Of a DNA stretch of 64,000 nt, positions 7,327-63,302 are shown piece by piece. How positions within the stretch are numbered: position 1 is the stretch's first letter; each line of letters starts with the position of its first letter. A model generated the notes under the pieces. It did no database searches, had not been told where the DNA came from, and saw only the letters and a list, made by a program, of their open reading frames with translations. The position numbers and the translations under genes are program-made. This stretch comes from a virus: the IMG/VR virus record IMGVR_UViG_3300034072_000926, positions 41,621-105,620 of that record; one strand, given 5' to 3'.

Positions 7327-9198
7327 ATGTCCAACAACATTAAGAAACTAACAGATTACCAACACGCTCGCTTGAGGACAGAGATGTATCTGGGTTCGAG
7401 GTCACTCCATACTCAGAACGTCCTGCAATTCGTAGATGGCAAGCCACAGCCTGTTGAGACATCTTGGGTGCCTGCATTATATACAGCATTCCGTGAAGTT
7501 CTCGACAACGCACTCGATGAAGTAGTGGGTCACGGCCACGGCAGTCGCATTGATGTCACATATGATCCTAAGACTCGCGAGGTCAGTGTTCAGGACGATG
7601 GTCGTGGTATCCCTATCGCTTATGATGAATCGCATAAGTGTCACCTCGCAACGCTGGTTATGACTGAAGCTCGTGCTGGTCGTAACTTTGAAGAGCGCGG
7701 CGAAGTCGCGGGAACTAACGGTATCGGTGCATCGGTTGTGAACTTCTGCTCCGAATTTTTCCGTCTTGACATCCATAAGGATGGCGAAAGGTTCCAGCAG
7801 GAATTCACACAGGGTAATGCAGTCTTTGGTGACGAACTACAGGTCGGAAAGCCGAAGATTGTAAAGAAGCAGAATAAGAACGGAACAAAGATCACGTTCA
7901 AGCTGAGCGATGAAGTCTTCCCTGACTTGACTCTCCCTGAGGAGTTCATTCGTTCGCGCGTAACTGAGGTTGCAATCTGCAATCCATTGATCAAGATCTT
8001 CTACAATGGAGAACAGGTCAAGGTCAAGCCGCGACCTGAACAGAGCCTCTTCCCTGGCTTGAAGCCAATGGCCCTAGAAGTGAAGGAAGATACCTTCCGT
8101 AGCCGCTTCTGGATTGTGCCCAATTGGGTCAAGGACGGCGAGCATGTTCATACGATTGTTAACAATATTCCTGCCTTTAACGGCGGTGTTCACATTGATA
8201 TTTTCCGTCGTCTCTTTTATGGCAACCTGATCACGGCTCTAGAGAAGGAAAGCAAGCGTCGCAAGCTGACTCCTAACCGCTCAGATGTTACTGAAGGTGT
8301 TCTGATCTACAACATCACGAACATGAGGGCTCCGAACTTCGATAGTCAGTCCAAGACACGACTGATCAATGAAGAAGTTGGTAAGATCATCAAAAGCCAG
8401 CTAGAAGATCCTGAACTCTACAAGGAGTTCATTAAGAAGAACCGAGAGTGGATTGAGGAAATCTACAAGCGTTGTGCAGAACGCACAATGAAGAAAGACC
8501 TCGGTGATCTCGCGAAGGCTGCAAAGAAGAATCTCCGCACCAAGGTTCCTGGACTGATGGATGCTATTGCGACTGATCGCACATCTTGCATTCTCTTCCT
8601 CGCAGAAGGTGACTCGGCAATTTCGGGTATGAGCTCTGTTCGTAATCCTGAAATCCATGGTGGTCTTGCGCTTTCGGGTAAGGTGCTCAACGTCAATGGC
8701 GAAATGCCTAAGAAGGTCGTCGAGAACAAGGCTCTCGGTGAGATCATGAGCAGCATTGGTTTGGTCGTTGGACAGAAGGCCCATCGCGGTGCTCTGCGCT
8801 ATGGCCAGGTATATGTCGCACATGACATGGATCCCGACGGTCTAAACATCGGTGCGCTTCTGATCAACTTCTTCCACACTTACTGGCCTGAGTTGTTTGC
8901 TGATCCAAAGAACCCGTTTGTTCATATCTTCCGCACCCCGTTCATCATTGCTGAAAAGGGTAAAGCTCGCAAATACTGGTATGCTCATAACTACCAGGAC
9001 TTCAAGCCAGAAGATTACAGCGGTTGGTCGATCACCCGTGCAAAGGGTCTCGGAACTCTCACCCGTGCCGATTGGGAATACTCTCTGAAGAACCCAGAAG
9101 TCTACCCAATTGTGGATGATGGCAAGATGGGTGAGACTTTGGACCTGATCTTCAACGGCAAGCGTTCGGACGATCGCAAGACCTGGATTGGCCTATAA
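7327..9198 (+). CDS. DNA topoisomerase II large subunit (T4 gp39+gp60 fused type, GyrB-like)
   Basis: GHKL ATPase N-terminus (NALDEV, GHGHG, DDGRGIP), TOPRIM (LFLAEGDSA, DMDPDG); probable ATG at 7327 with AAGGG RBS (track starts at TTG 7300). Confidence 0.88.
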   Translation: MSNNIKKLTDYQHARLRTEMYLGSRSLHTQNVLQFVDGKPQPVETSWVPALYTAFREVLDNALDEVVGHGHGSRIDVTYDPKTREVSVQDDGRGIPIAYDESHKCHLATLVMTEARAGRNFEERGEVAGTNGIGASVVNFCSEFFRLDIHKDGERFQQEFTQGNAVFGDELQVGKPKIVKKQNKNGTKITFKLSDEVFPDLTLPEEFIRSRVTEVAICNPLIKIFYNGEQVKVKPRPEQSLFPGLKPMALEVKEDTFRSRFWIVPNWVKDGEHVHTIVNNIPAFNGGVHIDIFRRLFYGNLITALEKESKRRKLTPNRSDVTEGVLIYNITNMRAPNFDSQSKTRLINEEVGKIIKSQLEDPELYKEFIKKNREWIEEIYKRCAERTMKKDLGDLAKAAKKNLRTKVPGLMDAIATDRTSCILFLAEGDSAISGMSSVRNPEIHGGLALSGKVLNVNGEMPKKVVENKALGEIMSSIGLVVGQKAHRGALRYGQVYVAHDMDPDGLNIGALLINFFHTYWPELFADPKNPFVHIFRTPFIIAEKGKARKYWYAHNYQDFKPEDYSGWSITRAKGLGTLTRADWEYSLKNPEVYPIVDDGKMGETLDLIFNGKRSDDRKTWIGL

Positions 9199-9530
9199 TG
9201 ACAGATAACTCTCAGATTAGTCCAGATACTTTCTGGAAAGACGAAGAGGGCATCGAGGAACATTACTGTAATGTCTATGTGGCAATTGACAAGGTCAAGA
9301 GCTCGACCGTTTGGTATGAAGACCTCGACGATAACGTCATCGAATGGCTGAATACAAACGCCGGCAATCGGAGAGCCCACGGTCTTGAATGGTATCAGAA
9401 TCTCGAGTTAGACCGATATGATTGGTCGGTTCGAGGCACTGTCAGGTATAAGGGACAGAGCTGTATCCAGATCTTGATCAAGGATAAGCGAGCTGCAATG
9501 ATGTTCAAGCTGTCATGGGGCGGTTTGTGA
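9198..9530 (+). CDS. FKLxWGG-tail paralog family member
   Basis: 110 aa; C-terminus RAAMMFKLSWGGL; TAATG stop/start overlap with topo II gene. Confidence 0.6.
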   Translation: MTDNSQISPDTFWKDEEGIEEHYCNVYVAIDKVKSSTVWYEDLDDNVIEWLNTNAGNRRAHGLEWYQNLELDRYDWSVRGTVRYKGQSCIQILIKDKRAAMMFKLSWGGL

Positions 9531-9778
9531 ACGTTCAGTGTCGTAACTTCATAAAGAGTAACGATGGTAACAAATTTCTCGGGTGTGTCACAACTGATGC
9601 ACCCGAGACGTTCAAGCTTTGGCTCGCAATGGCTTGTCCTACAAGCCAGCAAGTTCTTATATTTGAACGCAATGATGGAGCCATACGAGAAGAGGGCGGC
9701 TATCGTTGGAGGCTCAATATCGTCCTGAATGATCGGAAAGAAGCCCTTATGTTCAAGCTTCGTTGGTATGGCGCATGA
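9515..9778 (+). CDS. FKLxWGG-tail paralog family member
   Basis: 87 aa; C-terminus EALMFKLRWYGA; overlaps previous stop (ATG 9515 or GTG overlapping TGA). Confidence 0.55.
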   Translation: MGRFVNVQCRNFIKSNDGNKFLGCVTTDAPETFKLWLAMACPTSQQVLIFERNDGAIREEGGYRWRLNIVLNDRKEALMFKLRWYGA

Positions 9779-10047
9779 GCTTCTCTAACTGGTATGCTGT
9801 CTGGTATGAGCCAGAACCCGATGACATTATGGCCTACATCTCTATGGAGAAAATTGCCGTCATAGGCGGTGCCGAAAACAATGGAACCTATGAGGCTTTC
9901 CAGATCAATCAGGGTAATGCCATCCTGTCTAAGTGGTGTAGAGTAAATTGCAAATCGCCGGGCAAACCTGTAAATGTGCGTGGTGAACCTGCGTGGGCCT
10001 TTAAGGACGCCCAAGATGCTTTGCTGTTCAAACTAACTTGGGGTTAA
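9763..10047 (+). CDS. FKLxWGG-tail paralog family member
   Basis: 94 aa; C-terminus DALLFKLTWG. Confidence 0.55.
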   Translation: MVWRMSFSNWYAVWYEPEPDDIMAYISMEKIAVIGGAENNGTYEAFQINQGNAILSKWCRVNCKSPGKPVNVRGEPAWAFKDAQDALLFKLTWG

Positions 10048-16560: not shown

Positions 16561-16655
16561 ATGTCCGTGATAGCCGTGCCTTCCGAGAGGATTTCCTGCT
16601 CGGTCGTGCCCGACTTGGACATCAATTGCTTGCGAACGGTGGAGAGAATGCTCAT
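16419..16655 (-). CDS. small coiled-coil protein
   Basis: 78 aa; ATGA start/stop overlap with the upstream gene supports it. Confidence 0.35.
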   Translation of the reverse strand: MSILSTVRKQLMSKSGTTEQEILSEGTAITDMWNQIQELKLEMNAAKKKAAEEAAAPYLEAIEKIEKRYAMYIKLQSQ

Positions 16656-17152
16656 GCGATCTGCACCGTTATACCAGCCTGACGGAGGTAATTAACGGCC
16701 TCGAGGATCTTTCGATTCCACGCTTCGGCGGCAAGGTCCATAGGCTTATCGGGCATCGAGACGCTGACCCACTGGTTCACGCAACTCTCAATGGCATGCT
16801 TGGCTTCAACGAGCCCCATGCCCGTCAGACCGCGCAGTTCCTTGATCGCGTTGATCTTTTGCCACTGAGTAGTCCCATCGACATATAGTCGCAAAGTCTT
16901 CGCATTGGGGAACTTGTTGGACACAATGCCCATAATGAGGCGTGCCTTCCAGTCCTTGCCGAGGATCGGCGCGAGGGCTTCCAGGACTTCGATCGAGGTG
17001 TCTCGGGTATAGAACTGCTTGATAACGCGCAGAAAAGAAGCCGAAACTTCGTCGAGCGCGAAGAACTGATCGTCCTCAGTTTCAGGGTCAATGAGTGCCA
17101 CGGTATCTCCTTTGATTCGCCGCAGCTCTACACTCCTTGCACCGCTTGTCAA
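16652..17152 (-). CDS. protein with ribosomal L7/L12 C-terminal-domain-like region
   Basis: 166 aa; KINAIKELRGLTGMGLVEAKHAIES closely parallels L7/L12 CTD ([25 protein letters not shown]); C-terminus ..AGITVQIA like ..AGAEVEVK. Confidence 0.5.
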   Translation of the reverse strand: MTSGARSVELRRIKGDTVALIDPETEDDQFFALDEVSASFLRVIKQFYTRDTSIEVLEALAPILGKDWKARLIMGIVSNKFPNAKTLRLYVDGTTQWQKINAIKELRGLTGMGLVEAKHAIESCVNQWVSVSMPDKPMDLAAEAWNRKILEAVNYLRQAGITVQIA

Positions 17153-18497: not shown

Positions 18498-19055
18498 TTA
18501 CCCTAGGTAAATTGCACTATTTGCACCATGCTCGAAGCATTCAACGCTCACGAGACGCACATCAGGGTTAACCGCATAACGACCTAGTTCGCCCTTCTTC
18601 ATCTTCTCAAGAAGTTCGACGGACTTGTCATAGACTAGCTTGGCGGTCAATTCACAACCCACCCCAGGAACGATACGGAGATCGCACAGACGTCCGACAG
18701 AATAAGGAGTCGGTGTGAAACCGCTGCCGTCTTCTTCGCTAGAAGCTTTGCCATTCCAATTTGCATCTAGAGCAAACTTTGCAAAGGTTTCAAATACTTC
18801 ACGCGCAGGATCATCCTCAGCGACCAAGATCGTGTGGTCAAACATATGATCTAGATAAGCCTTAATGGGCTTCATTCCGCCGAAGTCGAAACACCAGTTC
18901 TTTTCATCAAGCGTTTCAGACTCGAAAACAAACTTGAAGCCTAGCGAGTAGCCATGAAGCGTTGAGCAATGGCTGTGATTTGCCTTCCACTGACGGAAGC
19001 AGCAGGAGAGTCCACGGTCAGTGCCGTAGGTTTTGGTCGATTGATACTTTGCCAT
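18498..19055 (-). CDS. queD: 6-pyruvoyl-tetrahydropterin synthase / QueD-like
   Basis: 185 aa; CxxxHGH-type motif (HSHCSTLHGYS), zinc-binding His pattern and size consistent with PTPS/QueD. Confidence 0.65.
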   Translation of the reverse strand: MAKYQSTKTYGTDRGLSCCFRQWKANHSHCSTLHGYSLGFKFVFESETLDEKNWCFDFGGMKPIKAYLDHMFDHTILVAEDDPAREVFETFAKFALDANWNGKASSEEDGSGFTPTPYSVGRLCDLRIVPGVGCELTAKLVYDKSVELLEKMKKGELGRYAVNPDVRLVSVECFEHGANSAIYLG

Positions 19056-31118: not shown

Positions 31119-32870
31119 TTAGAGTTCGTCGGGATTGATACCAGCCAGCTTCTGCAGCTCTGCCTTTTCCTGTGCCGAAATTGCTTCGGCCGAACCACGG
31201 GCCTTACGGACCGGAGCAGTCCTCACCGGCGCAGGAGCACCAACAACTTCCAGCGAACCATCTTCGTTCAGCGGAGCAGCGGCAGCTTCGACCAGACCGT
31301 TCAGACCACGGCTCAGGTCAACACCCAGTTCGCGAGCCATTTCGTCAATGACCGGAACCTGCAGTCGGTAACCCAGCATCGAGTTGGTCAGGTCAGTTGC
31401 GAGATTGCCAGTGGTCTGAGTGCCACTGATTGCGCCTTCGCCGGCCTGGCCACCAAGGCCGCCCAGACCACCCATCTGCACAACGCGGATGCTGTCGACC
31501 TTCTCCATCGGCTTGGTCATCTTTTCCATGATGGTCGGCATGGATTCGATAAGCGCCTTGCGGAGGTTGTAAGCCATCTGCGCCGGAGTGACGACGTTAG
31601 CAGCTTCGTTGAGGGCGCGCTGACCTTCGGATTCAACTTCATAACGCTTTGCGTCAGCGTCGATGAGTCGTTCCTTGGCCTTAGCCTGCGAGTCGGCAGC
31701 TTCGAGCTCAGCAGCAGCCATAACGCGGATACGAGTTGCTTCCTGTTCAGCTGCCTGCTCTGCCTGGATGACCGCAACGCGCTTTGCACGTTCTGCCGAA
31801 GCCTCAGCTTCAACGGTCTTCACTGCTTCAGTTGCACGAACCTGTTCTGCACGAGCATTGTCTGCTGCTGCGCGGGCCTTCGATTCCTGCTCCGACTTCT
31901 CAGCAACAGCAATACGCGACTGCTGGCTTGCAATCTCGAGAGCCTGAGCTGCCTCAGTCTCAGAGACCTTGATTGCGCGCTCCTTAGCAACGCGAGCCTG
32001 TTCGGTCGTCTTGGCGGCTTCGATTTCGGCCAGGTCCGATTCACGCTTGCGCTCTGCACGGGTCTGAGCCAGTTCAGCTTCCTGAGCTGCACGACGGGTT
32101 TCGACTTCACGCTGCTGTTCGAGGGTAGCGAACTCGTTCTGCTGCTTGATTTCCAGCGAACGCTTGTTGGCTTCGAAGTTCTTCTGCTCAATCGCAACGC
32201 GGTTGTCAGCTTCGATTTCGTTACGCTCCTTACGACGCGTCTCAGTGACCTGAGTCAGCTTCGCAAGACCTTCAGCGTCGAAGGCGTTGTTGGGGTTGAA
32301 GAACTTAACGTCCGTCTGGTCAAGACCAGTCAGCGAGACCGATTCCAGTTCCAGGCCGTTCTTCTTCAGGTCTTCCGCAACAGTGTTCTGAACCTTCTGA
32401 ACGAAGTCACCGCGCTTTTCATGCAGGTCCTGCATGTCCATCGAAGCAGCCGCAGCGCGCAGGGCGTCGACGAACTTACCTTCGACCAGACCAGCAAGCT
32501 GATCAGGTGCCATCGTGCGACGGCCAAGGGTCTGTGCCGCAGTGGCAATTGCAGTAGCATCAGGCGCGACGCGAACATAGAACTCTGCACGAACGTCGAC
32601 GCGCAGCCGGTCCTTGGTGATCAGCGAAGCTTCGCCACCGCCACGCTGAACAGTGAGGCGCAGGGTCTGCATATTGATCGGGATAGTTTCGTGCAGGATA
32701 GGAAGCACGATTGCACCGCCGTCCTTCACAACCTTTTCGCCGCCGAAACCGGTGCGGACGAAAGCCAGTTCCTTCGATGCACGATGGAACATCTTGGTCA
32801 TGATTAGGCCGAGGACGATAATTCCAAGGACAATCACGCCTGTAACAATTAGGCCAAACTGAAGACTCAT
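31119..32870 (-). CDS. flotillin-like SPFH/band-7 protein (YqiK-like)
   Basis: 583 aa; N-terminal TM, SPFH domain, long E/A/R/K-rich coiled-coil (flotillin repeats). Confidence 0.8.
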   Translation of the reverse strand: MSLQFGLIVTGVIVLGIIVLGLIMTKMFHRASKELAFVRTGFGGEKVVKDGGAIVLPILHETIPINMQTLRLTVQRGGGEASLITKDRLRVDVRAEFYVRVAPDATAIATAAQTLGRRTMAPDQLAGLVEGKFVDALRAAAASMDMQDLHEKRGDFVQKVQNTVAEDLKKNGLELESVSLTGLDQTDVKFFNPNNAFDAEGLAKLTQVTETRRKERNEIEADNRVAIEQKNFEANKRSLEIKQQNEFATLEQQREVETRRAAQEAELAQTRAERKRESDLAEIEAAKTTEQARVAKERAIKVSETEAAQALEIASQQSRIAVAEKSEQESKARAAADNARAEQVRATEAVKTVEAEASAERAKRVAVIQAEQAAEQEATRIRVMAAAELEAADSQAKAKERLIDADAKRYEVESEGQRALNEAANVVTPAQMAYNLRKALIESMPTIMEKMTKPMEKVDSIRVVQMGGLGGLGGQAGEGAISGTQTTGNLATDLTNSMLGYRLQVPVIDEMARELGVDLSRGLNGLVEAAAAPLNEDGSLEVVGAPAPVRTAPVRKARGSAEAISAQEKAELQKLAGINPDEL

Positions 32871-33871: not shown

Positions 33872-34031
33872 ACTTCTACTTATCGAGCAGACATGAGTAA
33901 CCCAGGAGGTTTTTAATCCTCCTGGGTCATTCCGACCTTCGGCATTTGAGAGACTACCGAGGGCTGTGATTTATATAATGTGGGGAGAAGTGAGTTGCAA
34001 GACTTGCAATTGCAATAAGCAACTTAATCTG

Positions 34032-34104
34032 TGCTGTCTATGGGACTTGAACCCATGACCTCTTCATTACCAATGAAGTGCTACTACCACTGAGCTAAGA
34101 CAGC
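34032..34104 (-). tRNA. tRNA-Thr (anticodon GGU)
   Basis: 73 nt cloverleaf with 7-bp acceptor stem GCTGTCT/AGACAGC, anticodon stem CTTCA/TGAAG, loop TTGGTAA, T-arm ATGGG-TTCAAGT-CCCAT; CCA not encoded. Confidence 0.8.
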
Positions 34105-44963: not shown

Positions 44964-46595
44964 TCAACGATAAGAAGTGCGAGTCGTGACCTTCTTCTTT
45001 CCTACAGCCTGACGAGCAGCAATCCTGAACTCATCCAAGCTACCATATTCCATTTCAGCTTGCTGAATGATGGCTTCGTGAATTGTTTCATTGTCATCGA
45101 AATGCTTCTGACAAACTGCACGAATAGCCTGGAAGACCGATGCCTGTGGATTGTTCTTCAGAGTTTCCTTCACAATACGCAGAGCAGCAGCCAACTGACC
45201 ATTAGTTAAGCCGTGTTGGCCGGCCGCACTAGCCTCTTCCAGTTCCTCCTGCTCAAGTGCTTCAGCGAGCCCCTTAGATAGGGCCTCAAGACGTGCGCGG
45301 GTTTCATGCACGCTTGGCGTGCCTTGGTTCACATAGGACCCTTGCTGAACGCCTGCGAGCTTCGCAACTTCCTGAACCTGCTGGGCAAAGAAGACGTCTT
45401 CGGTCGTGTCTTCTTCAACGACTTCGTCCTCTTCGACTTCTTCGTGGAACTGACGATATTCACCAGTTGGCATAACGTCAATGCCTAGCACATAGGCGCC
45501 TTCAGCAATCTCAATAGGATGTTCGCCACTTGCGACCTTAGTTGCAATCACGCGAGCATCGCCGTAAGTCGTGAAGCCTTCCTGGACTAGTTGAACCCTA
45601 GTGCCAGCTGTTGCCCACTTTGGCTGTTCGACTGTGCCGATATTTTCCATGATCTGGGTGTGAACCACCACTGCAAAGTTGTTAGCCTCCATGATGGCCT
45701 CCTCTAGTTCTTCTGTTTCATTAAGTTCTGGATCTCCTGCAAGGCCTTGCAGATCGCAATCACCTGTAGTGAGATCATCAATGCTTTCGTCCATTTGTTC
45801 ATCGAACTGGTCCTCAGTATCGGTCAAAAGCGCATCAGTTTCCATCATGTAATGGAGGGCCTGAGCTTTGAACTCTTCTTCTGACAAAGTGGAAAATTCC
45901 TGCATGTAAGGTGTTGCCTGATAGTGCCCATAGGCTCTTTCAAGAATAGTCTCAACTGGCAAACCTTCATCCATACCACCCCACTCTAGACATTCTAGAA
46001 GGTCACCTTTGTATAGACCATTTCCGATGTCAGCAAGACCTTCGGCGAGACTTTCAGAAATCTTTTTCGCAATCATAAGTGGACTCTTTACCCCTTGGGT
46101 CACATAACCCTTCCTCTTGAATTCAGCGAAGGTCTTTTCATTTGTTAGCATCGCACTGCTATTCGAGGCAGAGAATGCAATGACCTGGAAGTGTTCCATA
46201 TCAAACTCAGTCACGCCGCCATACATCACAGTTGGCTTGAACGTAACTTCTTTGAAAGCCTTGATTGCTTCATCCTTAGTCGAATAGCCAAGCATGACCT
46301 TGTCTTCGTCAAACTTCGAACCATCGACAGTTAGCTGATGAACCACATAGACCTTGGCGCCCTTCTTTGGATTCTTCCTCAGATAGCAATCAAGGTGTTC
46401 GCCGTCAGGACTATGGGTTCCCTTGATATAACCGTAATGTGCTGGGACTTTGATTGCCCATTCATCACCGGTCTTCTTGTTCTTGCCCCTGCGATAACCA
46501 CCAGCAGGGACTTCAATGGAAATATCTAGTCCTTCGAAGTGCTGACGGCTATGAAGCTTCGCCTCATTGAGCTGTTTGAAAAATTCCATACTCAC
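44964..46595 (-). CDS. large acidic protein with N-terminal inorganic-pyrophosphatase-like domain
   Basis: 543 aa; IEVPAGGYRRGKN...AHYGYI.GT.SPDGEHLDCYL parallels family I PPase motifs; acidic central region. Confidence 0.45.
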   Translation of the reverse strand: MSMEFFKQLNEAKLHSRQHFEGLDISIEVPAGGYRRGKNKKTGDEWAIKVPAHYGYIKGTHSPDGEHLDCYLRKNPKKGAKVYVVHQLTVDGSKFDEDKVMLGYSTKDEAIKAFKEVTFKPTVMYGGVTEFDMEHFQVIAFSASNSSAMLTNEKTFAEFKRKGYVTQGVKSPLMIAKKISESLAEGLADIGNGLYKGDLLECLEWGGMDEGLPVETILERAYGHYQATPYMQEFSTLSEEEFKAQALHYMMETDALLTDTEDQFDEQMDESIDDLTTGDCDLQGLAGDPELNETEELEEAIMEANNFAVVVHTQIMENIGTVEQPKWATAGTRVQLVQEGFTTYGDARVIATKVASGEHPIEIAEGAYVLGIDVMPTGEYRQFHEEVEEDEVVEEDTTEDVFFAQQVQEVAKLAGVQQGSYVNQGTPSVHETRARLEALSKGLAEALEQEELEEASAAGQHGLTNGQLAAALRIVKETLKNNPQASVFQAIRAVCQKHFDDNETIHEAIIQQAEMEYGSLDEFRIAARQAVGKKKVTTRTSYR

Positions 46596-52721: not shown

Positions 52722-52967
52722 ATGGGTGATCTATTCAAAAGTGTAGTCGAAATGATCGCGAAGGGCGAAGCAGGAGCTCTGACGGCTATTCTCCTAGCTA
52801 TCATTGGTGTCTTGGGTTGGTATTGTTTTCGCCTGATGAAGCAACTGGAAAAGAAGGACGAGAAGATCTATAAGATCATCGACGACTATTCCAAGAACAA
52901 CATCACTATCACTGACGCTCTAAACGGCCTCAAGACGGTGCTTATTGAGATTAAGGCAAAGCTCTAA
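52722..52967 (+). CDS. small single-TM protein
   Basis: 81 aa; LTAILLAIIGVLGWYCF TM; TAATG overlap with the PAS gene. Confidence 0.4.
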   Translation: MGDLFKSVVEMIAKGEAGALTAILLAIIGVLGWYCFRLMKQLEKKDEKIYKIIDDYSKNNITITDALNGLKTVLIEIKAKL

Positions 52968-54628
52968 TGTGGTTTAAAGATCGGAAGGAAAAGAAGAAGC
53001 AGCGTGAAGCTGTTTTGAAAGCGGCGCTTGACTCTAGCGAAGCCCTTGAAAAGGCCGCTAAAGGCACGATGAACCTTGCCGAAGATGTAACCAAAACCCT
53101 TCAAAGCAAAATTGACGACTATGCTCGGCAGATTGACCAAACGTCTAGTCTGCTGAGCGACGCTCTCATTCTAGTTGATGACCACGGAGTCATCGAAAGT
53201 TTCAATCCAGCGGCTGAAAAGATGTTTGGTATTGCTAGGAGACATATCAGGGGGAAGAGCATTTCTAAGCTCTTCGAATTCCCCAAAGATACTATCATCG
53301 ACCCAGTGTTCATGGATGAACTAACCGTAAAGGTCAATGAGAATGATCCTGCAGCCACTGTCCATTATGAAGACTTCATGGGCATCCGTAAAGATGGCAT
53401 GACTTTCCATGTGGACGTCAGTGCCAGCAAATTCACCAGGAACAACTCGAAAGTCCATTACATCATCCTAGTCCACGATGTGACCCACAAGGTGGCGAAT
53501 AGCAAAATGGTCGAAGATCTTGCTCAGAGGAACATGGAACTCCTTGCTACCATTGATGCATCAAATACCGGATTCATTATCCTAAGCCCTGATGGTAGCG
53601 ACTTCAAGATCAACTTCGTCAACATGGGCTTTAGTCGTCTCACTGGGTATTCTAGGACTCAGATCAAGAATATGAGCCTTATGGATCTTCTTGGCATCGA
53701 GCAAACTTTCTGGTCGGTTCGTCGTAGCCTTCTTGAACAGAAAGAAGCACGTCACGAAGTCCAGCTAGAGATCGGAACATGTCAGACTATCTGGTTTGAC
53801 ATTCAGATCACACCAGTGTTCAACGATGGTATCTGTAGTCAGTGGATCTTAGTGTTCTATGACACTACTGCACTAAAGAAAGCATATCACGATCTCAGGA
53901 AGAGCGAATCACATTTCAAGGCGTTTAGTGATGCAAGTTCCGAGTCCATGCTTATCCACAACTTTGGTCAGGTCATTGATTGGAACGATCGCCTCAACGC
54001 ATTGACTGGCTATACAGATGAAGAGATTGAGAAACTCATGCCTCTTGATCTTGTCCATCCTCTCGAACGTGAGAAGATCAGAGAAGAGGTTCATTTAACT
54101 GGTAACAATAGCTATGAAACGCTATTCATGACCAAACAAGGCGATGTTCGTGAGGTTGCAATCAACAGTCGTTCCATTGAATGGGATAACACTGATGCAA
54201 GGATTTCAATTGTTCGAGATGTAACCGAATACAAGGATATCGAGACTCAGTTGAAGACTGCAAGGGAGCGTTATCGCACGGTCATCGATAACACGATCGA
54301 TATGGTCATTTGCTTCAATAGCGATTTCGAGATTACCTTCTCGAATCAGACCTTCCGTGACTACTATGAAGTAGAGCTAGAAGACATCAATGGGTTCTCA
54401 CTCTTGGAGATCATCCCTGAGACTGACCATAAGAAGTTCAAGGAATATATGATGGAGATCGCCCCTGGGAATGATGTTCGTCGAGGTATTCACCGTGTCC
54501 AGCGTCATGGAGACATTAGGATGCAGGATTGGATCGACCGTGGCATCTTTGATGAAGATGGAAATCTCATTGAAATTCAGAGTGTTGCTCGAGACGTAAC
54601 TAGCCTTTTGCCTCCACCTACTACTTGA
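52967..54628 (+). CDS. four-PAS-domain protein without recognisable output domain
   Basis: 553 aa; four repeats of about 110 aa each with a PAS-like core (..D..G.I...N......G........G........). Confidence 0.65.
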   Translation: MWFKDRKEKKKQREAVLKAALDSSEALEKAAKGTMNLAEDVTKTLQSKIDDYARQIDQTSSLLSDALILVDDHGVIESFNPAAEKMFGIARRHIRGKSISKLFEFPKDTIIDPVFMDELTVKVNENDPAATVHYEDFMGIRKDGMTFHVDVSASKFTRNNSKVHYIILVHDVTHKVANSKMVEDLAQRNMELLATIDASNTGFIILSPDGSDFKINFVNMGFSRLTGYSRTQIKNMSLMDLLGIEQTFWSVRRSLLEQKEARHEVQLEIGTCQTIWFDIQITPVFNDGICSQWILVFYDTTALKKAYHDLRKSESHFKAFSDASSESMLIHNFGQVIDWNDRLNALTGYTDEEIEKLMPLDLVHPLEREKIREEVHLTGNNSYETLFMTKQGDVREVAINSRSIEWDNTDARISIVRDVTEYKDIETQLKTARERYRTVIDNTIDMVICFNSDFEITFSNQTFRDYYEVELEDINGFSLLEIIPETDHKKFKEYMMEIAPGNDVRRGIHRVQRHGDIRMQDWIDRGIFDEDGNLIEIQSVARDVTSLLPPPTT

Positions 54629-58982: not shown

Positions 58983-60503
58983 TCACTTATTGAGCTTCTT
59001 TGCAAAAGCACGGAGTGCGGCTCCATCCATCTGCATCTTTCCAGCTGCTGACGGAACAGGAACTGGGTTCCTTTGCAGAACAGGATTCAATGCTGCATCA
59101 CCTTTTGGCAATGTAGGATCCTTCTCAGGTGAGAAGGAAGTGCCAATTGACTTAGGAACAACGGTCGAAACATTGCCCTTTAGACCAGCTGCAATGGGCG
59201 ACATGCCTGAACTGCGACCCTCGGCCATTTCCTGCGGAGCATCAGTGATCCTCAGTGTATTGGGATCAATCTTAAGGAAGATCTTCTGACCAACACCAGA
59301 TGACGAACGAGTCTTAAGGAACTGAATCTGATATTCGCCACGTTCTTTCATAGCCGCAGTTGTGAGGATCGCCATCACGTTATCCGCGGTGTTGATCTTC
59401 GAGATACCGCCTGCAATGTGGCTTGCGTCGAAGTCTTGTTCCTGAATAGAAGCACGGTTGAGCTGCGATGCAGTCGCACAAAGGATGTTCCATTCGACTG
59501 CAAGAGCACGAAGTTCTTCAGATGTGAACTTGTCCTTAATGAACTGGTCACTGACGTTAATCTTACCACTGTTCGGGTGCATCAGGTCAAGGTAGTCGAC
59601 CACGATAGCATCAGGGCGCGCACCTGTCTGAATCTCAAATTCCTGCAGGTATGCACGAATGTCATTCGCCGTGGTGCCGGCCATCGGCAGCTTCTTAATT
59701 TGAAGCTTGCCCCACTTGTGAGCCTTGCCACCACTCTTACGCATCATACCAAGGCGCATCGCAACTTCGTCGATGTCCTTAAAGATCTGCTTCGTCGGCA
59801 TCTCGGTGATCATTGCGTCATAGCGAAGACCAACGAGTTCTTCAGAAAGTTCCATCGTGATGTAGATCACGCTCAAGCCCATCTGCACCCAGTTAAGCGC
59901 AAGGTTCTGTAAGAACAGTGATTTACCCGTACCAGGTCCACCGCAGAAGAAGCTGATTTCACCTCGGTTGAAACCACCATAAAGCTTGGAGTCAATGTCC
60001 TTCCAGCCAGTTGGTGTGGTATCAGTCTTATCCCTCATGCGTTCTAGACGCTCTTTGGGATCCATGAAATAGTCGGTGCCTAGTTCAGTCTGTAGACTGA
60101 TCAGCATGTTCTCTTTTGAACGGCGTTCTAGTTCAGCATAGTCGCCCTTGGAGATCAACTGAGGACCTTCAAAGACAAGAGCTTCCATGGCCTTATGACG
60201 ACAGAAATCTGCAATCGTGTTCAGGAACCATTCAACGTGATTCGACTGAACATTTGGGATAATTGGCGTATCAATCCCAGTCTCTGCCGTGACCTGTTCA
60301 GGTGTAGGTAGAGCACGGTATTCGTTTGTGAACTTCTGGATATAGCGAACTGCCGGACGTAGGCGCTCATTCCAGTATTCGGGCTTTACGATATTCTGAC
60401 AACGAACATAGGCGCTGTTGTCAGTAAGCATGAACTGAATGAGGACCTTCTGGACCTCTTCGCTATATTCCTTGAGCTCTGTTTGTTCTTTTCTCTGGCT
60501 CAC
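58983..60503 (-). CDS. replicative DNA helicase (DnaB family, T4 gp41-like)
   Basis: 506 aa; Walker A FFCGGPGTGKS, RecA-like core, N-terminal helical domain. Confidence 0.85.
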   Translation of the reverse strand: MSQRKEQTELKEYSEEVQKVLIQFMLTDNSAYVRCQNIVKPEYWNERLRPAVRYIQKFTNEYRALPTPEQVTAETGIDTPIIPNVQSNHVEWFLNTIADFCRHKAMEALVFEGPQLISKGDYAELERRSKENMLISLQTELGTDYFMDPKERLERMRDKTDTTPTGWKDIDSKLYGGFNRGEISFFCGGPGTGKSLFLQNLALNWVQMGLSVIYITMELSEELVGLRYDAMITEMPTKQIFKDIDEVAMRLGMMRKSGGKAHKWGKLQIKKLPMAGTTANDIRAYLQEFEIQTGARPDAIVVDYLDLMHPNSGKINVSDQFIKDKFTSEELRALAVEWNILCATASQLNRASIQEQDFDASHIAGGISKINTADNVMAILTTAAMKERGEYQIQFLKTRSSSGVGQKIFLKIDPNTLRITDAPQEMAEGRSSGMSPIAAGLKGNVSTVVPKSIGTSFSPEKDPTLPKGDAALNPVLQRNPVPVPSAAGKMQMDGAALRAFAKKLNK

Positions 60504-60519: not shown

Positions 60520-61551
60520 TTATACTAAGCGTTGCCGCCTTACACCTATTTCTAGCTTATTCTTTGTCATTGCATCAATAATTGACCACACCGTATAGAG
60601 TTTTCCGTAAGCTTTTACCGCATCTGCGGCGTCCTTGATGCCAGTGTCCCAACGAGGAAAGGACACATACCATCCCTCACTGAGGGCAGTATCAACAAGC
60701 TTACCGCCTTGTTCTACGCGGTCGGGAACAACAATGATTTTCTTGCCAGTTTGATTAAGCCAACGTGCTTGGTCAGGCATGACCTTGTCACCAAGCATCG
60801 CAATACCATTTATCGCGATACCATCGAAGGGTCCTTCACAGACGAATAGAAATTCCCAGTCCTTCTTGATCGCTTCGGTGTTGAAGAGATAACGAGGCTG
60901 GACTTCACTAAAGTATCGCATTGGTGACGAATTGTCGATCACACGAGCAGTCCAACCGACGACTTCATGTTCCCAGAAGAAGGGAATGATAACTCGACGA
61001 TTCAATCCATTTGTCTTCTCAGGTGTCCAATAGAAGTCTGCCCCTAAGAGGACTTCATCACCACGAGTTGACAAGTAGGCAAGAGCATCGAGGAAGTCTG
61101 GATCGGTTAGTTCATGCTCGAGCCAGAACGTGATTGGTTTGGCACCCTTAGGCAAAGGCACTGGCTTGAACTCTAGTCGCTCGAGAAGTTCACGAGGGGC
61201 CATGGAGACCAACTCACCCTTCTCAAGCATGTTCTTCCTCAGTTCCTCAACATAGAAACCAAGCCAATCAAGTTCTTCCTTAGGCATACCCAGCCACTGG
61301 AAGTAATCTTTCCACTTTGTAGTGAATCGACTTCCAGGTGTCCAAGCAGTCTTAAAGCCACAGTTGAAGCAGGAGATTGTTGTTCGACCGTCGAAGTCAA
61401 ACATCAATCCTCCACGCTTCTTAGTATCAGGTCGGGACTGTCCGTTATGAATGCAGCATGGACCATTGAATCTCATCCACCTACTAGGAGTGGATTGCGC
61501 TCCAGATATATGCTTGATTAGGGCATCGTAGACGAGAGTCAAAGGGTTCAT
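60520..61551 (-). CDS. DNA primase (T4 gp61-like; zinc ribbon + TOPRIM)
   Basis: 343 aa; CC..C..C zinc ribbon (PCCIHNG...SCFNCG); TOPRIM-like CEGPFDGIAI and VVPDRVEQG; lies beside the helicase as in T4. Confidence 0.65.
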   Translation of the reverse strand: MNPLTLVYDALIKHISGAQSTPSRWMRFNGPCCIHNGQSRPDTKKRGGLMFDFDGRTTISCFNCGFKTAWTPGSRFTTKWKDYFQWLGMPKEELDWLGFYVEELRKNMLEKGELVSMAPRELLERLEFKPVPLPKGAKPITFWLEHELTDPDFLDALAYLSTRGDEVLLGADFYWTPEKTNGLNRRVIIPFFWEHEVVGWTARVIDNSSPMRYFSEVQPRYLFNTEAIKKDWEFLFVCEGPFDGIAINGIAMLGDKVMPDQARWLNQTGKKIIVVPDRVEQGGKLVDTALSEGWYVSFPRWDTGIKDAADAVKAYGKLYTVWSIIDAMTKNKLEIGVRRQRLV

Positions 61552-63302
61552 TAGAGTTCAAACAATCCATCGTTCATGATAGCCAGCTTTGGCTTGTTTT
61601 CGGCCAGGGTTGCAGCTTCTGCTTCCTTCCTAGCCTTCGTGACCTGCTTGTGTTCCTTGATGTCACCCAACTCGAAAGTTGAATAGTCAAGAACGCCACG
61701 TTCTGCATTGTCACTTGCAAGATAGTTCAGGATCTTACGATTCTTCTCAAGGTAGTCGTTGTAGTTCTCAACCTTGAAAGCTTCCTCGATGACACCCTTG
61801 AGCTCAAGCAACTGGGCCGGAACCTTCGCGGGATCATTCGAGTCGTAGAGTTCCTGAGACTCATAAACGCCTTCTAGGTGAACCTGGACGTTATGATTCA
61901 TCAGCATTGCATAGGTAACAACGTCCCATGTCGAAGTGAACTTAGGGTCCACGTTGACACAGATATCACCCATTGTGAGGCGCTTGCCGATTTCAGTCTC
62001 AACAAAGCGAGAACCTTCGACACCCTTGAGACGTTCGTCGAACATGTCCTTCAGAACATCAAGGAAGGGACGATCAGCTTCCGAGCCCTTAGCAGGGAGA
62101 GGAATCTTCTGTCCGTTCTCATCCAACTTATAGACAATCCTGTCCTTACCTGTCGATATCATTTCGTGACCGATTTGTTCAATACCGTCCTTATCGAAAT
62201 AGGTATTGGTAGGCAGGTAGTGACGACCGTCTAGCTTCTCACCCTGAATTGACCAGCTGTCCTTGTTCAGGTTATAGCCGAGGAAGACCTTGCCATAAGC
62301 TGCTAGGGTGAAGGGTGACGAAACGTCATAGGAGATCGTGAAGTTCGGATTGATCTGTTCACGAACCTGACGCTGGATGGTGGTATAGATGCAACCGTGC
62401 TGGAACTTGCCAACACCAAGAAAGTGCATCCAGTCCTTGTCCTGCAGGAGACCGTCATCCCTCATATTGAGGATACGACCCAAGCCCATCTCAAAGTTTT
62501 CCTTGTGATGGCTTGCAAGCGACCAACCCTCAAAGGGATAGTGCTTGACGTTCTCATACCAAATCTTAGATTCGGTTGGATTACGACCCTGAACAACATT
62601 TAGGAACTTCGTTGCGCCAGGAACTCGGTTAGCCACGAAGTAATCGTTGTTGATGATCGTCTGCAACATACAGGCGTAATAGAGACGATCATTGATGTCA
62701 TTGACGTTGCCACCATTCTTGATAATAAGGGCATCGAGTGCCGCCTTATTATTGAAATCCGGAGACTGGAAGGTTTCCATCTTCGGAGTACCATCTTCGT
62801 TGAAGATCTTCTTCTTGTTGGCGTCAATGGCTTGCAAGAAGCCAGTCGTCGATTCAAGACGCTCAAGGTGACGGTCGATGTTACCAAGACCAATACCACC
62901 AGTTGGGAAGTCGAGGACCATTGACCAATCACAGTTGGCTTCCATCCAGCGCATCATCTTCTCGCGGGTCTTATCGCCCTCGAACTTGATCGCGCCTGTC
63001 TGGATCTGAAATCCACCAGAGTCGCCCAACACCGTGAACATGCCAGGTGTGCGATCACGACCAGTAACCATGTCCTTGCGATGCGTGACTGCATTGCCCT
63101 TAGCAGCCTGTCCGGCCGAATATAGAGCGCTGTTCAGATAGAACAGGTTCGTGTTCGAATCAAAGAAATTCAAATCACTACGAGGGATAGGTGGCTCCCT
63201 CTTTGGGTTTTCCGCATTCACGTAGCGGACATACATTTCTGAGATAGCCGGTGTGAACCGAGCATAATCTCGATATCTCTTGGAATAGTCAATACCGGAC
63301 AT
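61551..63302 (-). CDS. tRNA-guanine-transglycosylase superfamily protein (possible DpdA-like DNA transglycosylase)
   Basis: 583 aa; VLGDSGGFQ motif matching the TGT DSGGFQ active-site region, followed by a MVLDFP segment resembling TGT DIVMIFDEC. Confidence 0.45.
   Translation of the reverse strand: MSGIDYSKRYRDYARFTPAISEMYVRYVNAENPKREPPIPRSDLNFFDSNTNLFYLNSALYSAGQAAKGNAVTHRKDMVTGRDRTPGMFTVLGDSGGFQIQTGAIKFEGDKTREKMMRWMEANCDWSMVLDFPTGGIGLGNIDRHLERLESTTGFLQAIDANKKKIFNEDGTPKMETFQSPDFNNKAALDALIIKNGGNVNDINDRLYYACMLQTIINNDYFVANRVPGATKFLNVVQGRNPTESKIWYENVKHYPFEGWSLASHHKENFEMGLGRILNMRDDGLLQDKDWMHFLGVGKFQHGCIYTTIQRQVREQINPNFTISYDVSSPFTLAAYGKVFLGYNLNKDSWSIQGEKLDGRHYLPTNTYFDKDGIEQIGHEMISTGKDRIVYKLDENGQKIPLPAKGSEADRPFLDVLKDMFDERLKGVEGSRFVETEIGKRLTMGDICVNVDPKFTSTWDVVTYAMLMNHNVQVHLEGVYESQELYDSNDPAKVPAQLLELKGVIEEAFKVENYNDYLEKNRKILNYLASDNAERGVLDYSTFELGDIKEHKQVTKARKEAEAATLAENKPKLAIMNDGLFEL

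Follow-up and report, generated by a model that had tools for sequence, protein, structure and literature searches.

DpdA is regarded as the signature protein of 7-deazaguanine DNA modification: in genome mining, matches to DpdA/TGT HMMs decide whether a deazapurine pathway is taken to serve the modification of nucleic acids (e.g., 10.64898/2026.04.15.718813). The roles of its active-site residues were defined by mutagenesis of Salmonella DpdA, and a CxCxxC...H structural zinc site, conserved in tRNA-guanine transglycosylases (TGTs) and DpdA, pins the insertion known as Ins8 to the barrel (PMC10164549). A conserved His, "position 196" in Hutinet 2019, corresponds to H181 of Salmonella DpdA. 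Not all phage types keep it: DpdA2 lacks the DpdA1 His (PMC6884629). DpdA3, a very remote TGT homolog that HHpred alone detected, has members in Cellulophaga phage phiST (CGPG_00065), in Flavobacterium phages, and in Campylobacter phages of the CP220 type (PMC10516641). Here we describe a protein and its family, both called TGTL, encoded on a 64-kb stretch of viral DNA (the window). We place this uncatalogued family among the relatives of the enzymes exchanging DNA guanine for 7-deazaguanine, from which it has diverged very far. The gene lies in a replication module:

61551..63302, minus strand: TGTL, TGT/DpdA-superfamily protein and candidate DNA 7-deazaguanine transglycosylase (583 aa, ATG start)
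60520..61551, minus strand: DNA primase (phrog_47, E 4e-26), translationally coupled to TGTL (TAATG read directly)
58983..60503, minus strand: DnaB-like replicative helicase (Pfam DnaB_C 4.5e-17; phrog_19 7.7e-73)

The ORF listing contains the 583-aa frame with exactly the ends and ATG start given in the original prediction. That prediction had also placed the gene immediately downstream of the helicase-primase pair; the adjacency holds, but the genes are on the minus strand, so TGTL lies 5' of both primase and DnaB. The TAA stop of TGTL and the primase ATG share one base, and this TGTL-primase synteny recurs in Sinorhizobium phage Phosso and in P0081, L008, L009, and L013. A Shine-Dalgarno-like GAGAGG sits 6 nt ahead of the ATG at 63302. 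Residues 1-22 are kept in homologs, which favors this long start and not the shorter JGI gene call (561 aa, P0001). The window's other 583-aa ORF (31119-32870) was considered as a paralog and rejected, being a flotillin/SPFH protein.

Standard searches do not retrieve the family. TGTL and 42 family members had no match in Pfam, PHROGs, NCBIfam, or PADLOC, nor against PDB sequences with phmmer/hmmsearch, and none of the 42 matched PF01702 (TGT) or PF20314 (DUF6610, the DpdA4 family) even at E up to 10. The profile comparison by which the prediction proposed to be checked gave a divided answer. Against DpdA1 (9g-type alignment) or E. coli TGT alone, hhalign returned probabilities of 1-17%, which are not significant and make those alignments usable for motif register only. 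Against Vibrio phage GR7B_00174 and two relatives, alignment A1 of the TGTL family scored 96-97% (E 5e-9 to 3e-11). These bridge proteins in turn match Pfam TGT, Lauda_00102 doing so at 32.9 bits, over the gathering cut-off. A possible identity of the bridge family with DpdA3 was rejected, its tblastn matches being jumbo phages of Pseudomonas, Xanthomonas, Vibrio, Achromobacter, and Burkholderia. Clustered at 50% identity, the TGTL family forms >1,100 groups, and it includes no fewer than 595 viral loci. Since a family of this size is invisible to DpdA/TGT HMMs, a large share of G-modifying phages would be missed or misclassified.

The active site was located from five conserved segments, with residue conservation counted over 242 diverse family members (identity down to ~27%):

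63006..63026, minus strand: G93-D94-S-G-G-F98-Q99 motif, aligned to the TGT and DpdA1 motifs
62904..62921, minus strand: M128-V-L-D131-F-P133 motif (D131 242/242, P133 241/242), aligned with the bridge-family LDxPT
62583..62600, minus strand: N235-V-V-Q238-G-R240 strand, equivalent to TGT GIxQGG and DpdA H181-G182
62406..62426, minus strand: H293-F-L295-G296-V-G-K motif, equivalent to TGT YLMGVGKP
62316..62333, minus strand: S324-Y-D326-V-S-S motif (D326 242/242)

The two segments on which the TGT assignment had originally been based, TVLGDSGGFQIQ (residues 90-101, window 63000-63035) and MVLDFP (residues 128-133, window 62904-62921), are present as quoted. They are no chance match: D94, S95, and G97 are each found in 241 of the 242 members and Q99 in 239, position 98 is F or Y in 241, and D131 is invariant. 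The catalytic aspartates could also be aligned as had been asked: D94 and D326 fall opposite D89 and D264 of E. coli TGT, and they line up likewise with the motifs of DpdA1 and with the bridge family. D94 is predicted to act as general acid/base, like D95 of DpdA, D102 of Z. mobilis TGT, and D89 of E. coli TGT, and F98 to stack against the base, like F99 of DpdA. D326 is the predicted nucleophile of a covalent enzyme-DNA intermediate (equivalent to DpdA D256, E. coli TGT D264, and Z. mobilis TGT D280); in hhalign it is paired with that E. coli residue and with the "SCDSSSWIQSAAFG" motif of DpdA1. The equivalence of D131 to the superfamily Asp is based on the bridge alignment and motif order. 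All three active-site Asp residues of the superfamily (acid/base, base recognition, nucleophile) are thus found in the TGTL family; together with H293 (242/242) they occur in 241-242 members and align with residues that are catalytic in E. coli TGT and DpdA1. L295 (239/242), next to G296 (240/242), corresponds to DpdA L236 of the base sandwich. The Q238 strand aligns to E. coli TGT FGIIQGS. The conserved His of DpdA1 and bacterial DpdA is not found at position 238, which is Gln in 224 members, Ser in 10, and His in 8; G239 is kept in 233.

Structure prediction, a further check proposed at the outset, gave a TGT-type (beta/alpha)8 TIM barrel, which resembles structures of the TGT family more closely than it does other TIM barrels. 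DpdA is the top structural match, and Cap10 scores well under DpdA and the TGTs. As predicted, the protein is longer than DpdA (583 aa versus 317 aa for DpdA1), and it carries the following regions:

62628..62900, minus strand: family-specific insertion of variable length, residues ~135-225 (alignment A1)
61923..62315, minus strand: equivalent of DpdA Ins8, residues ~330-460 (secondary structure, pLDDT, alignment A1)
61890..61961, minus strand: C448 to H470-N471 (C448 173/242, H470 228, N471 227)
61554..61838, minus strand: C-terminal helical tail, residues 489-583 (AF2 secondary structure, pLDDT, alignment A1)

The first insertion, whose length varies greatly in alignment A1, joins the D131 strand to the VQG strand. 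Its spacing from D131 to Q238 is 107 aa, versus 51 aa from D130 to H181 in bacterial DpdA, a difference of ~55 residues. The Ins8 equivalent lies 3' of the nucleophile and consists of beta-hairpins and a hypervariable low-confidence loop without a CxCxxC zinc knuckle. CxCxxC is found in none of the 242 family members, whereas E. coli TGT (CDCYTC) and all three bridge proteins have it, so its loss departs from a superfamily hallmark. C448 and H470-N471 are a probable remnant of the site, representing the third Cys and the His on the terminal barrel helix; the 22-residue spacing from C448 to H470 is that of C373 to H395 in Salmonella DpdA. From these sequences, the TGT/DpdA scaffold would appear able to work without its conserved zinc site. 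The last ~50 residues are of low confidence (AF2) and poorly conserved (alignment A1).

Co-occurrence with 7-deazaguanine synthesis or salvage genes, as expected for a DpdA-type enzyme, was observed for the TGTL family. One pathway gene lies in the window:

18498..19055, minus strand: QueD/6-carboxy-tetrahydropterin synthase family gene (38% identity to Phosso QueD, E 1e-34)

It scores 46.2 bits against Pfam PTPS (cut-off 22.4) and matches CPH4 synthase (PDB 7v0f, E 0.006). A tblastn search of the window with phage 9g FolE, QueD, Gat-QueC, and QueE gave no match; QueD emerged through its Phosso ortholog. FolE and QueE were not found within the 64-kb window. The Phosso genome is collinear with the window, encodes a TGTL of 50% identity as its sole detectable TGT-superfamily protein, and served as proxy for the remainder of the ~465-kb source genome; it encodes FolE, QueE, and QueD and no QueC. 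Phosso-type phages also encode Q-family tRNAs (Asp, Asn, His). Across 80 viral loci, FolE was present in 36 and QueE in 32 of the 45 with sufficient downstream flank, and PolB in 53 of the 59 with sufficient upstream flank, although a single large lineage of related phages contributes much of this signal, which is therefore not fully independent. The TGTL homolog of Vibrio phage 2.275.O is followed by QueF, YhhQ, QueC, FolE, QueE, and QueD. TGTL lies in DNA-replication modules in every lineage, with primase-DnaB here and PolB-clamp elsewhere. Members also occur in small bacterial islands without tRNA context. An island in Aurantimonas combines TGTL with a glycosyltransferase (GT) ortholog and an adjoining YhhQ-like gene that scores 26.9 bits against a cut-off of 27.2.

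The family can be set beside a DNA phenotype in the therapeutic Pseudomonas jumbo phage PA5oct. Its DNA is resistant to several restriction enzymes with G-containing sites and is targeted by modified-G sensors, and the paper describing this names QueE and QueD and no DpdA (PMC12191111). We found that PA5oct gp168, located between PolB and QueE, is a TGTL family member. The family is probably the missing enzyme behind the restriction-resistant DNA of a large phage group, and gp168 is a concrete candidate for the unexplained modified G of PA5oct and its relatives. This candidate bears on END nuclease and restriction susceptibility and hence on the choice of phages for therapy.

Fold, active-site residues, and genomic context support the original suggestion of a DpdA-like transglycosylase as a candidate activity. 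At a probability of roughly 0.74, we read TGTL as a DpdA-like TGT-superfamily nucleic-acid transglycosylase, most likely modifying the DNA of its own phage once this has been replicated. If it works as TGT and DpdA do, the target guanine would be flipped into a pocket on the C-terminal side of the TIM barrel, where F98 and L295 would sandwich it and D131 and Q238 would read it. D94, acting as a base, would then activate N9 of the incoming 7-deazaguanine and thereby resolve the intermediate. Phage FolE, QueD, and QueE would supply the 7-deazaguanine, with QueD encoded in the window and FolE and QueE expected elsewhere in the genome, as in Phosso. Given that Phosso has no QueC, CDG or one of its derivatives is probably what is inserted, or else preQ0 made by the host. 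Further decoration of the base by a conserved GT-B glycosyltransferase-like partner may follow, and the outcome would be G-modified DNA that resists restriction. In this scheme, DNA as the target, the kind of base, and the GT step are inferred, and the fold, the invariant catalytic residues, the loss of the zinc motif, and the genomic association were observed.

This partner neighbors TGTL in PA5oct-like phages, occurs in Phosso, and has the ortholog in the bacterial island noted above. In two family members, P0265 and P0266, a GT4 domain is fused N-terminally to the enzyme. We rejected the fused domain and the neighboring partner (c5_GT) as one shared domain, since no homology between them was detectable, and the two links to glycosyl transfer are thus analogous. 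The recurrent partner and the fusions hint at a possibly new hypermodified base. Tentatively, and with the odds against it, TGTL and the GT partner may install an undescribed base, a glycosylated or otherwise decorated CDG-derived 7-deazaguanine. The phages concerned would be very numerous and for the most part uncultured, with jumbo phages of 200-470 kb among them. If true, 7-deazaguanine DNA hypermodification would be far more widespread and chemically diverse than the DpdA1-4 census, and its scaffold would be zinc-less.

Three other readings were weighed against DNA modification. TGTL could be a phage tRNA-guanine transglycosylase that modifies position 34 of GUN-anticodon tRNAs, whether of the phage or of its host, by placing there a 7-deazaguanine such as preQ1 or preQ0. 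Such an enzyme would belong to the large translation-related gene set of jumbo phages, and the Gln at position 238, as in tRNA TGTs and not the His of DpdA, as well as the Q-family tRNAs of Phosso-type phages, would fit it. We consider it improbable, as the best structural match is DpdA, the gene sits in replication modules in every lineage and in bacterial islands without tRNA context, and the protein lacks the zinc subdomain that helps TGT to bind tRNA. The nucleophile motif SYDVSSPFTLAAYG is likewise closer to "SCDSSSWIQSAAFG" of DpdA1 than to "MFDCVMPTRNARNG" of TGT, and the PA5oct phenotype is at the DNA level, with no other candidate enzyme.

The TGT fold could instead support another chemistry or substrate, such as attachment of a deazaguanine to protein, exchange for a base other than a 7-deazaguanine, or mere removal of guanine by a DNA glycosylase, whose purpose could be host DNA damage or countering a defense system. 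Protein attachment is the activity of Cap10 in type IV CBASS; its low structural score relative to DpdA and TGTs and the absence of a Cap9 or CD-NTase partner from the contexts examined speak against this option. The association with FolE, QueD, QueE, QueC, QueF, and YhhQ argues for 7-deazaguanine as the incoming base, the full set of guanine-binding and catalytic residues is invariant, and PA5oct DNA behaves as G-modified; we give these variants only a small chance. Least probable by far is a catalytically dead protein with a structural or replication-accessory role, comparable to QTRT2, the non-catalytic partner of QTRT1. Although it would account for the coupling to primase, a pseudo-enzyme is not expected to retain three catalytic Asp and the base-pocket residues across 242 sequences of such divergence, and Phosso has no second, catalytic TGT paralog to serve as partner.

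How, then, does a DpdA-like TGTL compare with the described types? Bacterial TGTs (Z. mobilis, E. coli) differ in matching Pfam TGT, in their zinc site, and in their insertions; the genes of tRNA TGTs usually lie apart from those of the pathway, but that of TGTL is in a replication module beside genes for deazaguanine synthesis. Bacterial DpdA of Salmonella Montevideo (PDB 7ui4), the DNA preQ0 insertase of Dpd restriction-modification, shares 12% identity with TGTL and has His181 and CxCxxC where TGTL has Gln238 and no such motif. It belongs to a Dpd island with DpdC and DpdB, a ParB-like ATPase required for insertion. TGTL belongs to a phage replication module and does not match the PADLOC Dpd models, and neither DpdB nor DpdC was seen, by annotation or Pfam match, among the neighbors in the window, Phosso, PA5oct, or the conserved module.

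DpdA3 resembles TGTL in logic and layout, with the polymerase gene on one side and a CDG-level pathway (FolE, QueD, and QueE, no QueC) on the other. CP220 and the PA5oct-type module also have similar accessory genes (in CP220, PRTase, epimerase, and many radical SAM genes). However, tblastn with two TGTL family members matched no Cellulophaga, Campylobacter, or Flavobacterium phage, and HMM and hhalign searches of the whole CP220 genome found no ORF that was TGT-like or detectably related to TGTL, a result compatible with either a deep relationship to DpdA3 or none. One hmmsearch run with filters off (E up to 10) gave noise only, and a single match with heuristic filters off (E 0.0015), a 163-aa CP220 tail-region protein, was treated as noise.

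Like TGTL, DpdA2 (Vibrio phage nt-1) and the bridge proteins are encoded by large phages and are TGT-like, divergent in sequence, and long, at 450-570 aa. The uncharacterized nt-1 protein R9TGF0, possibly its DpdA2, is a structural neighbor of TGTL (BFVD E 1e-9); this match is at the structure level only, nt-1 being absent from the tblastn matches. The bridge proteins (GR7B_00174, Lauda_00102, PhiXhv-12 XYR92962, and the "tRNA guanine transglycosylase" of Motura) are unclassified and come from 200-260-kb phages. Their family aligns with TGTL with all motifs in register, although BLAST-level similarity covers only ~160 residues (E 8e-5 to 7e-3). They keep CxCxxC, through which they match Pfam TGT, and have His at the VQG position where TGTL has Gln. 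DpdA1 (Enterobacteria phage 9g gp03 and relatives) has no HMM-detectable relationship to TGTL (profile-profile probability 1%) and carries the conserved His that TGTL does not conserve. The two nevertheless share the S-x-D-x-S-S...A-A-(F/Y)-G nucleophile motif and the D-S-G-(G/A)-F motif, and both are phage-encoded and associated with FolE, QueD, and QueE. The 9g enzyme also provides a precedent for the location of TGTL in a replication module.

The 583-aa reading frame behind the original prediction is present in full on the minus strand, opening with ATG, and both peptides quoted from it occur in its translation (TVLGDSGGFQIQ at residues 90-101 and MVLDFP at residues 128-133). The gene, here termed TGTL, and its neighbors are as follows.

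61551..63302, minus strand: TGTL, ATG start, 583 aa
60520-61551, minus strand: primase (phrog_47, E 4e-26)
58983-60503, minus strand: DnaB-type helicase (phrog_19, E 8e-73)

The adjacency to the primase and helicase stands, but not the downstream position: in the direction of transcription, TGTL precedes the primase and then the helicase. A Shine-Dalgarno-like GAGAGG lies 6 nt 5' of the ATG, and residues 1-22 are kept in aligned homologs, which favors the long 583-aa start over the public gene call of 561 aa (P0001). The stop codon (TAA) shares a base with the primase ATG (TAATG), which implies translational coupling. Coupling and placement among replication genes fit an action of TGTL on newly made phage DNA; the characterized phage 9g DpdA also adjoins DNA polymerase and clamp.

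Library searches left the family without a name. TGTL and 42 aligned family members had no match in Pfam, PHROGs, NCBIfam, or PADLOC at E up to 10, including Pfam TGT (PF01702) and DUF6610 (the DpdA4 family), and PDB sequences yielded nothing relevant to TGTL by phmmer or profile hmmsearch. The family itself is large, with 2,107 matches at 90% clustering and 1,138, 789, and 428 clusters at 50% identity (E up to 1e-3, 1e-10, and 1e-30, respectively). At least 595 loci were confirmed in IMG/VR, and the cultured carriers are Sinorhizobium phage Phosso (50% identity), PA5oct-group Pseudomonas jumbo phages (30%), and Vibrio phage 2.275.O (27%). All source names given for family members read "hypothetical protein." This abundance without annotation is one reason for our moderately high interest in the family.

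An AlphaFold2 model built on the 42-sequence alignment was confident (mean pLDDT 87, pTM 0.85), and its 50 best Foldseek matches in the PDB were exclusively bacterial and archaeosine TGTs (E about 1e-6, probability 1.00). All 16 significant matches among BFVD viral models were TGT/DpdA-like or uncharacterized, including an uncharacterized Vibrio phage nt-1 protein and a phage Motura "tRNA guanine transglycosylase." The catalytic aspartates are also alignable, as the original prediction required: hhalign places D94 on D89 of E. coli TGT (LTDSGGFQ motif) and D326 on the nucleophile D264, pairing NVVQG with GIIQG and LGVGK with MGVGK. Among 242 diverse members (the family alignment, 125 representatives at 50% identity, and viral loci), D131, H293, and D326 are each invariant (242/242), and D94 is missing only from one gapped sequence (241/242). 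Flanking positions are nearly as constant (S95, G97, and P133, 241 each; G296, 240; Q99 and L295, 239 each). In Salmonella DpdA, D95 is the acid/base, F99 stacks, D130 recognizes the base, L236 belongs to the same set, and D256 is the nucleophile; D95A and D256A each abolish activity (PMC10164549). The order and numbering of these catalytic and base-pocket residues run parallel to those of TGTL. In an alignment to DpdA1 whose score was not significant, D94 pairs with "LDSGAFS" and "SYD326VSSPFTLAAYG" with "SCDSSSWIQSAAFG."

Long TGT-like proteins from 200-260-kb phages bridge the remaining distance. Among them are PhiXhv-12 XYR92962, Lauda_00102, and GR7B_00174, whose annotation reads "TGT domain-containing protein." They align to the TGTL family profile over up to 354 columns (probability 96-97%, E 5e-9 to 3e-11) with all motifs in register, and an HMM built from three of their sequences matches the TGTL of the window directly (E 1.6e-7). 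They reach Pfam TGT through a C-terminal zinc subdomain, Lauda_00102 at 32.9 bits exceeding the gathering cut-off. At the level of sequence profiles, these proteins join the TGTL family to Pfam TGT by a statistically solid link. By fold and catalytic residues, TGTL is a member of the TGT superfamily.

TGTL occurs in four genomic arrangements, each linked to 7-deazaguanine metabolism. Gene orders are given below.

PA5oct-like module: PolB, sliding clamp (c1_245), TGTL, c3_176, c4_136, GT-B-like protein c5_GT (GT, glycosyltransferase), FolE, phosphoribosyltransferase (PRTase), HIT, QueE, c11_150, 5'-3' exonuclease
PA5oct: gp173/171 PolB, gp170 clamp, gp168 TGTL, gp167 GT-like, gp163 PRTase, gp162 QueE
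Vibrio phage 2.275.O: PolB, clamp, two small genes, TGTL (NVP2275O_468), 370-aa unknown, QueF, YhhQ-type transporter (PF02592), QueC, aminohydrolase, FolE, QueE, QueD
Aurantimonas bacterial island: TGTL, YhhQ-like protein, ortholog of the phage GT-like partner
Window and Phosso: TGTL, primase, DnaB, PAS protein, SPFH, TelA, nucleotidyltransferase, Smr, QueD, topo IV A, topo large subunit, ClpX, IF3

The co-directional PA5oct-like module was common to ~72 of 80 fetched viral loci; where enough flank was available, it included FolE (36/45), QueE (32/45), PRTase (25/45), and PolB (53/59). In several loci (e.g., PA5oct 224607-228313 [L088], L012, L017, and L034), the interval from FolE to QueE holds genes for a phosphoribosyltransferase, an NAD-dependent epimerase/dehydratase, and a HIT-family protein, a hint that the deazapurine undergoes sugar or nucleotide-level chemistry beyond current DpdA pathway schemes. 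Similar accessory genes occur in the DpdA3-bearing Campylobacter phage CP220. The 2.275.O gene set is a complete preQ1 pathway. In Aurantimonas, the GT-like ortholog is unambiguous (E 4e-134), and the YhhQ-like protein matches Vut_1 at E 7e-6 (26.9 bits vs a cut-off of 27.2). Two homologs (P0265 and P0266) fuse the TGT-like domain to an N-terminal GT4 glycosyltransferase (weak "GT4-conflict" match) that has no detectable homology to the neighboring phage GT-like partner. Separately, metagenome contigs L003-L005 carry an integrase-flanked bacterial island in which a conserved 535-aa protein lacking any Pfam match precedes a 472-aa TGT-like gene (8367-9974 and 10001-11419 in L003); the former could be a different partner or part of a defense-type arrangement.

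Read in inverted orientation, the window is collinear with 323-383 kb of Phosso (PV764938.1), where the local order of virion protein, TGTL, primase, and DnaB is the same; this marks the source as a Phosso-like phage (~465 kb) whose host is probably an alphaproteobacterium. In Phosso, PolB, clamp, c4_136, a GT-like gene, FolE, QueE, c11_150, and exonuclease occupy 145-159 kb, QueD lies at 372 kb, QueC is not detectable, and TGTL is the sole detectable TGT-superfamily protein. With the PolB module devoid of TGTL and TGTL beside the primase, this layout implies that TGTL moved from the polymerase to the primase-helicase module in the Phosso clade. The slot between sliding clamp and c4_136, held by the TGT-like gene in PA5oct-like modules, contains Phosso gene 222 ("glycosylase," 149815-150348), which may be a replacement or a second DNA-base-acting enzyme. 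Phosso also clusters four radical-SAM genes with an oxidoreductase (genes 272, 283, 284, 287, and 290; 179870-193014), and CP220 likewise has many radical-SAM genes. Further features of the window include the following.

18498-19055, minus strand: QueD/6-carboxy-tetrahydropterin synthase family gene, 185 aa, located by Phosso collinearity ~43 kb from TGTL
31119-32870, minus strand: flotillin/SPFH ORF, 583 aa (Pfam Flot 8.8e-35, Band_7 1.8e-19)
34031-34104, minus strand: tRNA-Thr(GGU), the sole tRNA in the window, not Q-family
16652-17152 (minus), 44964-46595 (minus), 52967-54628 (plus), and others: cellular-type genes unusual for a phage (ribosomal L7/L12 C-terminal domain, E 4.7e-7; InPase-domain protein; protein with at least four PAS domains)

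The window QueD shares 38% identity with that of Phosso (E 1e-34), scores 46.2 bits against Pfam PTPS (cut-off 22.4), and has CPH4 synthase as its best PDB match. FolE and QueE were not found within the 64-kb window; in a genome of roughly 465 kb, they are expected to lie outside it. The flotillin/SPFH ORF was rejected as a TGTL relative, its equal length being coincidental; together with TelA and YqiJ_N matches, it suggests a membrane-stress module like the Phosso SPFH and TelA genes (492 and 494). The window also matches IF3, ClpX zinc finger, AdoMet decarboxylase, NADAR, the CCA-adding/PolyA_pol head domain, and both RNR subunits.

The TGT fold, invariant catalytic residues, and 7-deazaguanine gene context bear out the proposed candidacy of TGTL as a DpdA-like DNA-guanine transglycosylase, and by analogy support its inserting a 7-deazaguanine as DpdA does. 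If TGTL works as its homologs TGT and DpdA do, the guanine nucleotide to be replaced would be flipped into the barrel pocket, its Watson-Crick edge read by D131 and Q238 and the base sandwiched by F98 and L295. D326 would displace the base, yielding a covalent glycosyl-enzyme intermediate, while D94 serves as general acid; in the second half of the reaction, D94 would deprotonate N9 of the incoming 7-deazaguanine, whose attack on C1' would complete the exchange. The pathway encoded by Phosso- and PA5oct-type phages (FolE, QueD, QueE) ends at CDG, as in DpdA3-bearing phages (PMC10516641), so the likely inserted base is CDG, a CDG derivative, or preQ0 supplied by the host; in 2.275.O it is probably preQ1. 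More speculatively, the recurrent GT-B-like partner and the PRTase, HIT, and epimerase of PA5oct-like modules suggest further decoration of the base, and the recurring glycosyltransferase association raises the prospect of novel DNA chemistry.

PA5oct supplies a phenotype. Its DNA resists several G-site restriction enzymes, which the authors attribute to a modified G within GA and/or GG, and END nucleases, one specific for G-modified phages, restrict it; QueE (gp162) and a QueD-like protein (gp230) were reported, and the paper names no DpdA (PMC12191111). A 2026 jumbo-phage review lists deazaguanine incorporation only among "predicted capabilities." The TGTL member gp168 is the obvious candidate for the G-modifying enzyme, giving this open experimental observation a candidate explanation.

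That TGTL instead modifies tRNA is improbable: Phosso-type phages do carry Q-family tRNAs and Gln238 is TGT-like, but the replication-module context recurs in every lineage, the best structural match is DpdA, the nucleophile motif is DpdA-like, the PA5oct phenotype is at the DNA level, and copies occur in bacterial islands. Tight linkage to deazaguanine supply genes makes a Cap10-like protein modifier or a glycosylase-only activity unlikely; for Cap10, the score is also well below those of DpdA and the TGTs, and Cap9 and CD-NTase partners are absent from all contexts examined. The invariance of the catalytic residues renders a pseudo-enzyme very unlikely.

Relative to known enzymes, DpdA-like insertion by TGTL is an extension of an established system, not a novel one, with several departures. 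The unusual length originally remarked upon is real, but not the suspected extra domains: it derives from a variable-length insertion between the D131 and VQG strands (~residues 135-225), a hypervariable, partly low-confidence Ins8-equivalent region (~330-460), and a helical tail, without recognizable appended domains. Whereas DpdA enzymes and TGTs in general are described as conserving a structural CxCx2C...H zinc site (PMC10164549), the CxCxxC motif, present in E. coli TGT and 3/3 bridge proteins, occurs in 0/242 TGTL members. Only C448 (173/242) and H470 (228/242) are left, 22 residues apart like C373 and H395 of Salmonella DpdA, and we read them as a remnant of the site on a zinc-less TGT scaffold. 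The H-G histidine of DpdA1 and bacterial DpdA is replaced by Gln238, as in tRNA TGTs; DpdA2 likewise lacks this histidine (PMC6884629). Unlike bacterial Dpd systems, TGTL has no DpdB or DpdC partner recognizable by annotation or Pfam among its neighbors in the window, Phosso, PA5oct, and the conserved module. Because it lacks the zinc site, the H-G histidine, a match to any curated HMM, and such DpdB/DpdC partners, the family is classified as a putative new subfamily of DpdA-like enzymes. Neither tblastn with family members nor HMM and hhalign searches across the entire genome of the DpdA3-bearing phage CP220 revealed similarity. The names "DpdA5" and "DpdA6" were not found in a literature search. 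The zinc-containing bridge proteins are related but distinct, and DpdA3-bearing phages follow the same genomic logic as TGTL carriers.
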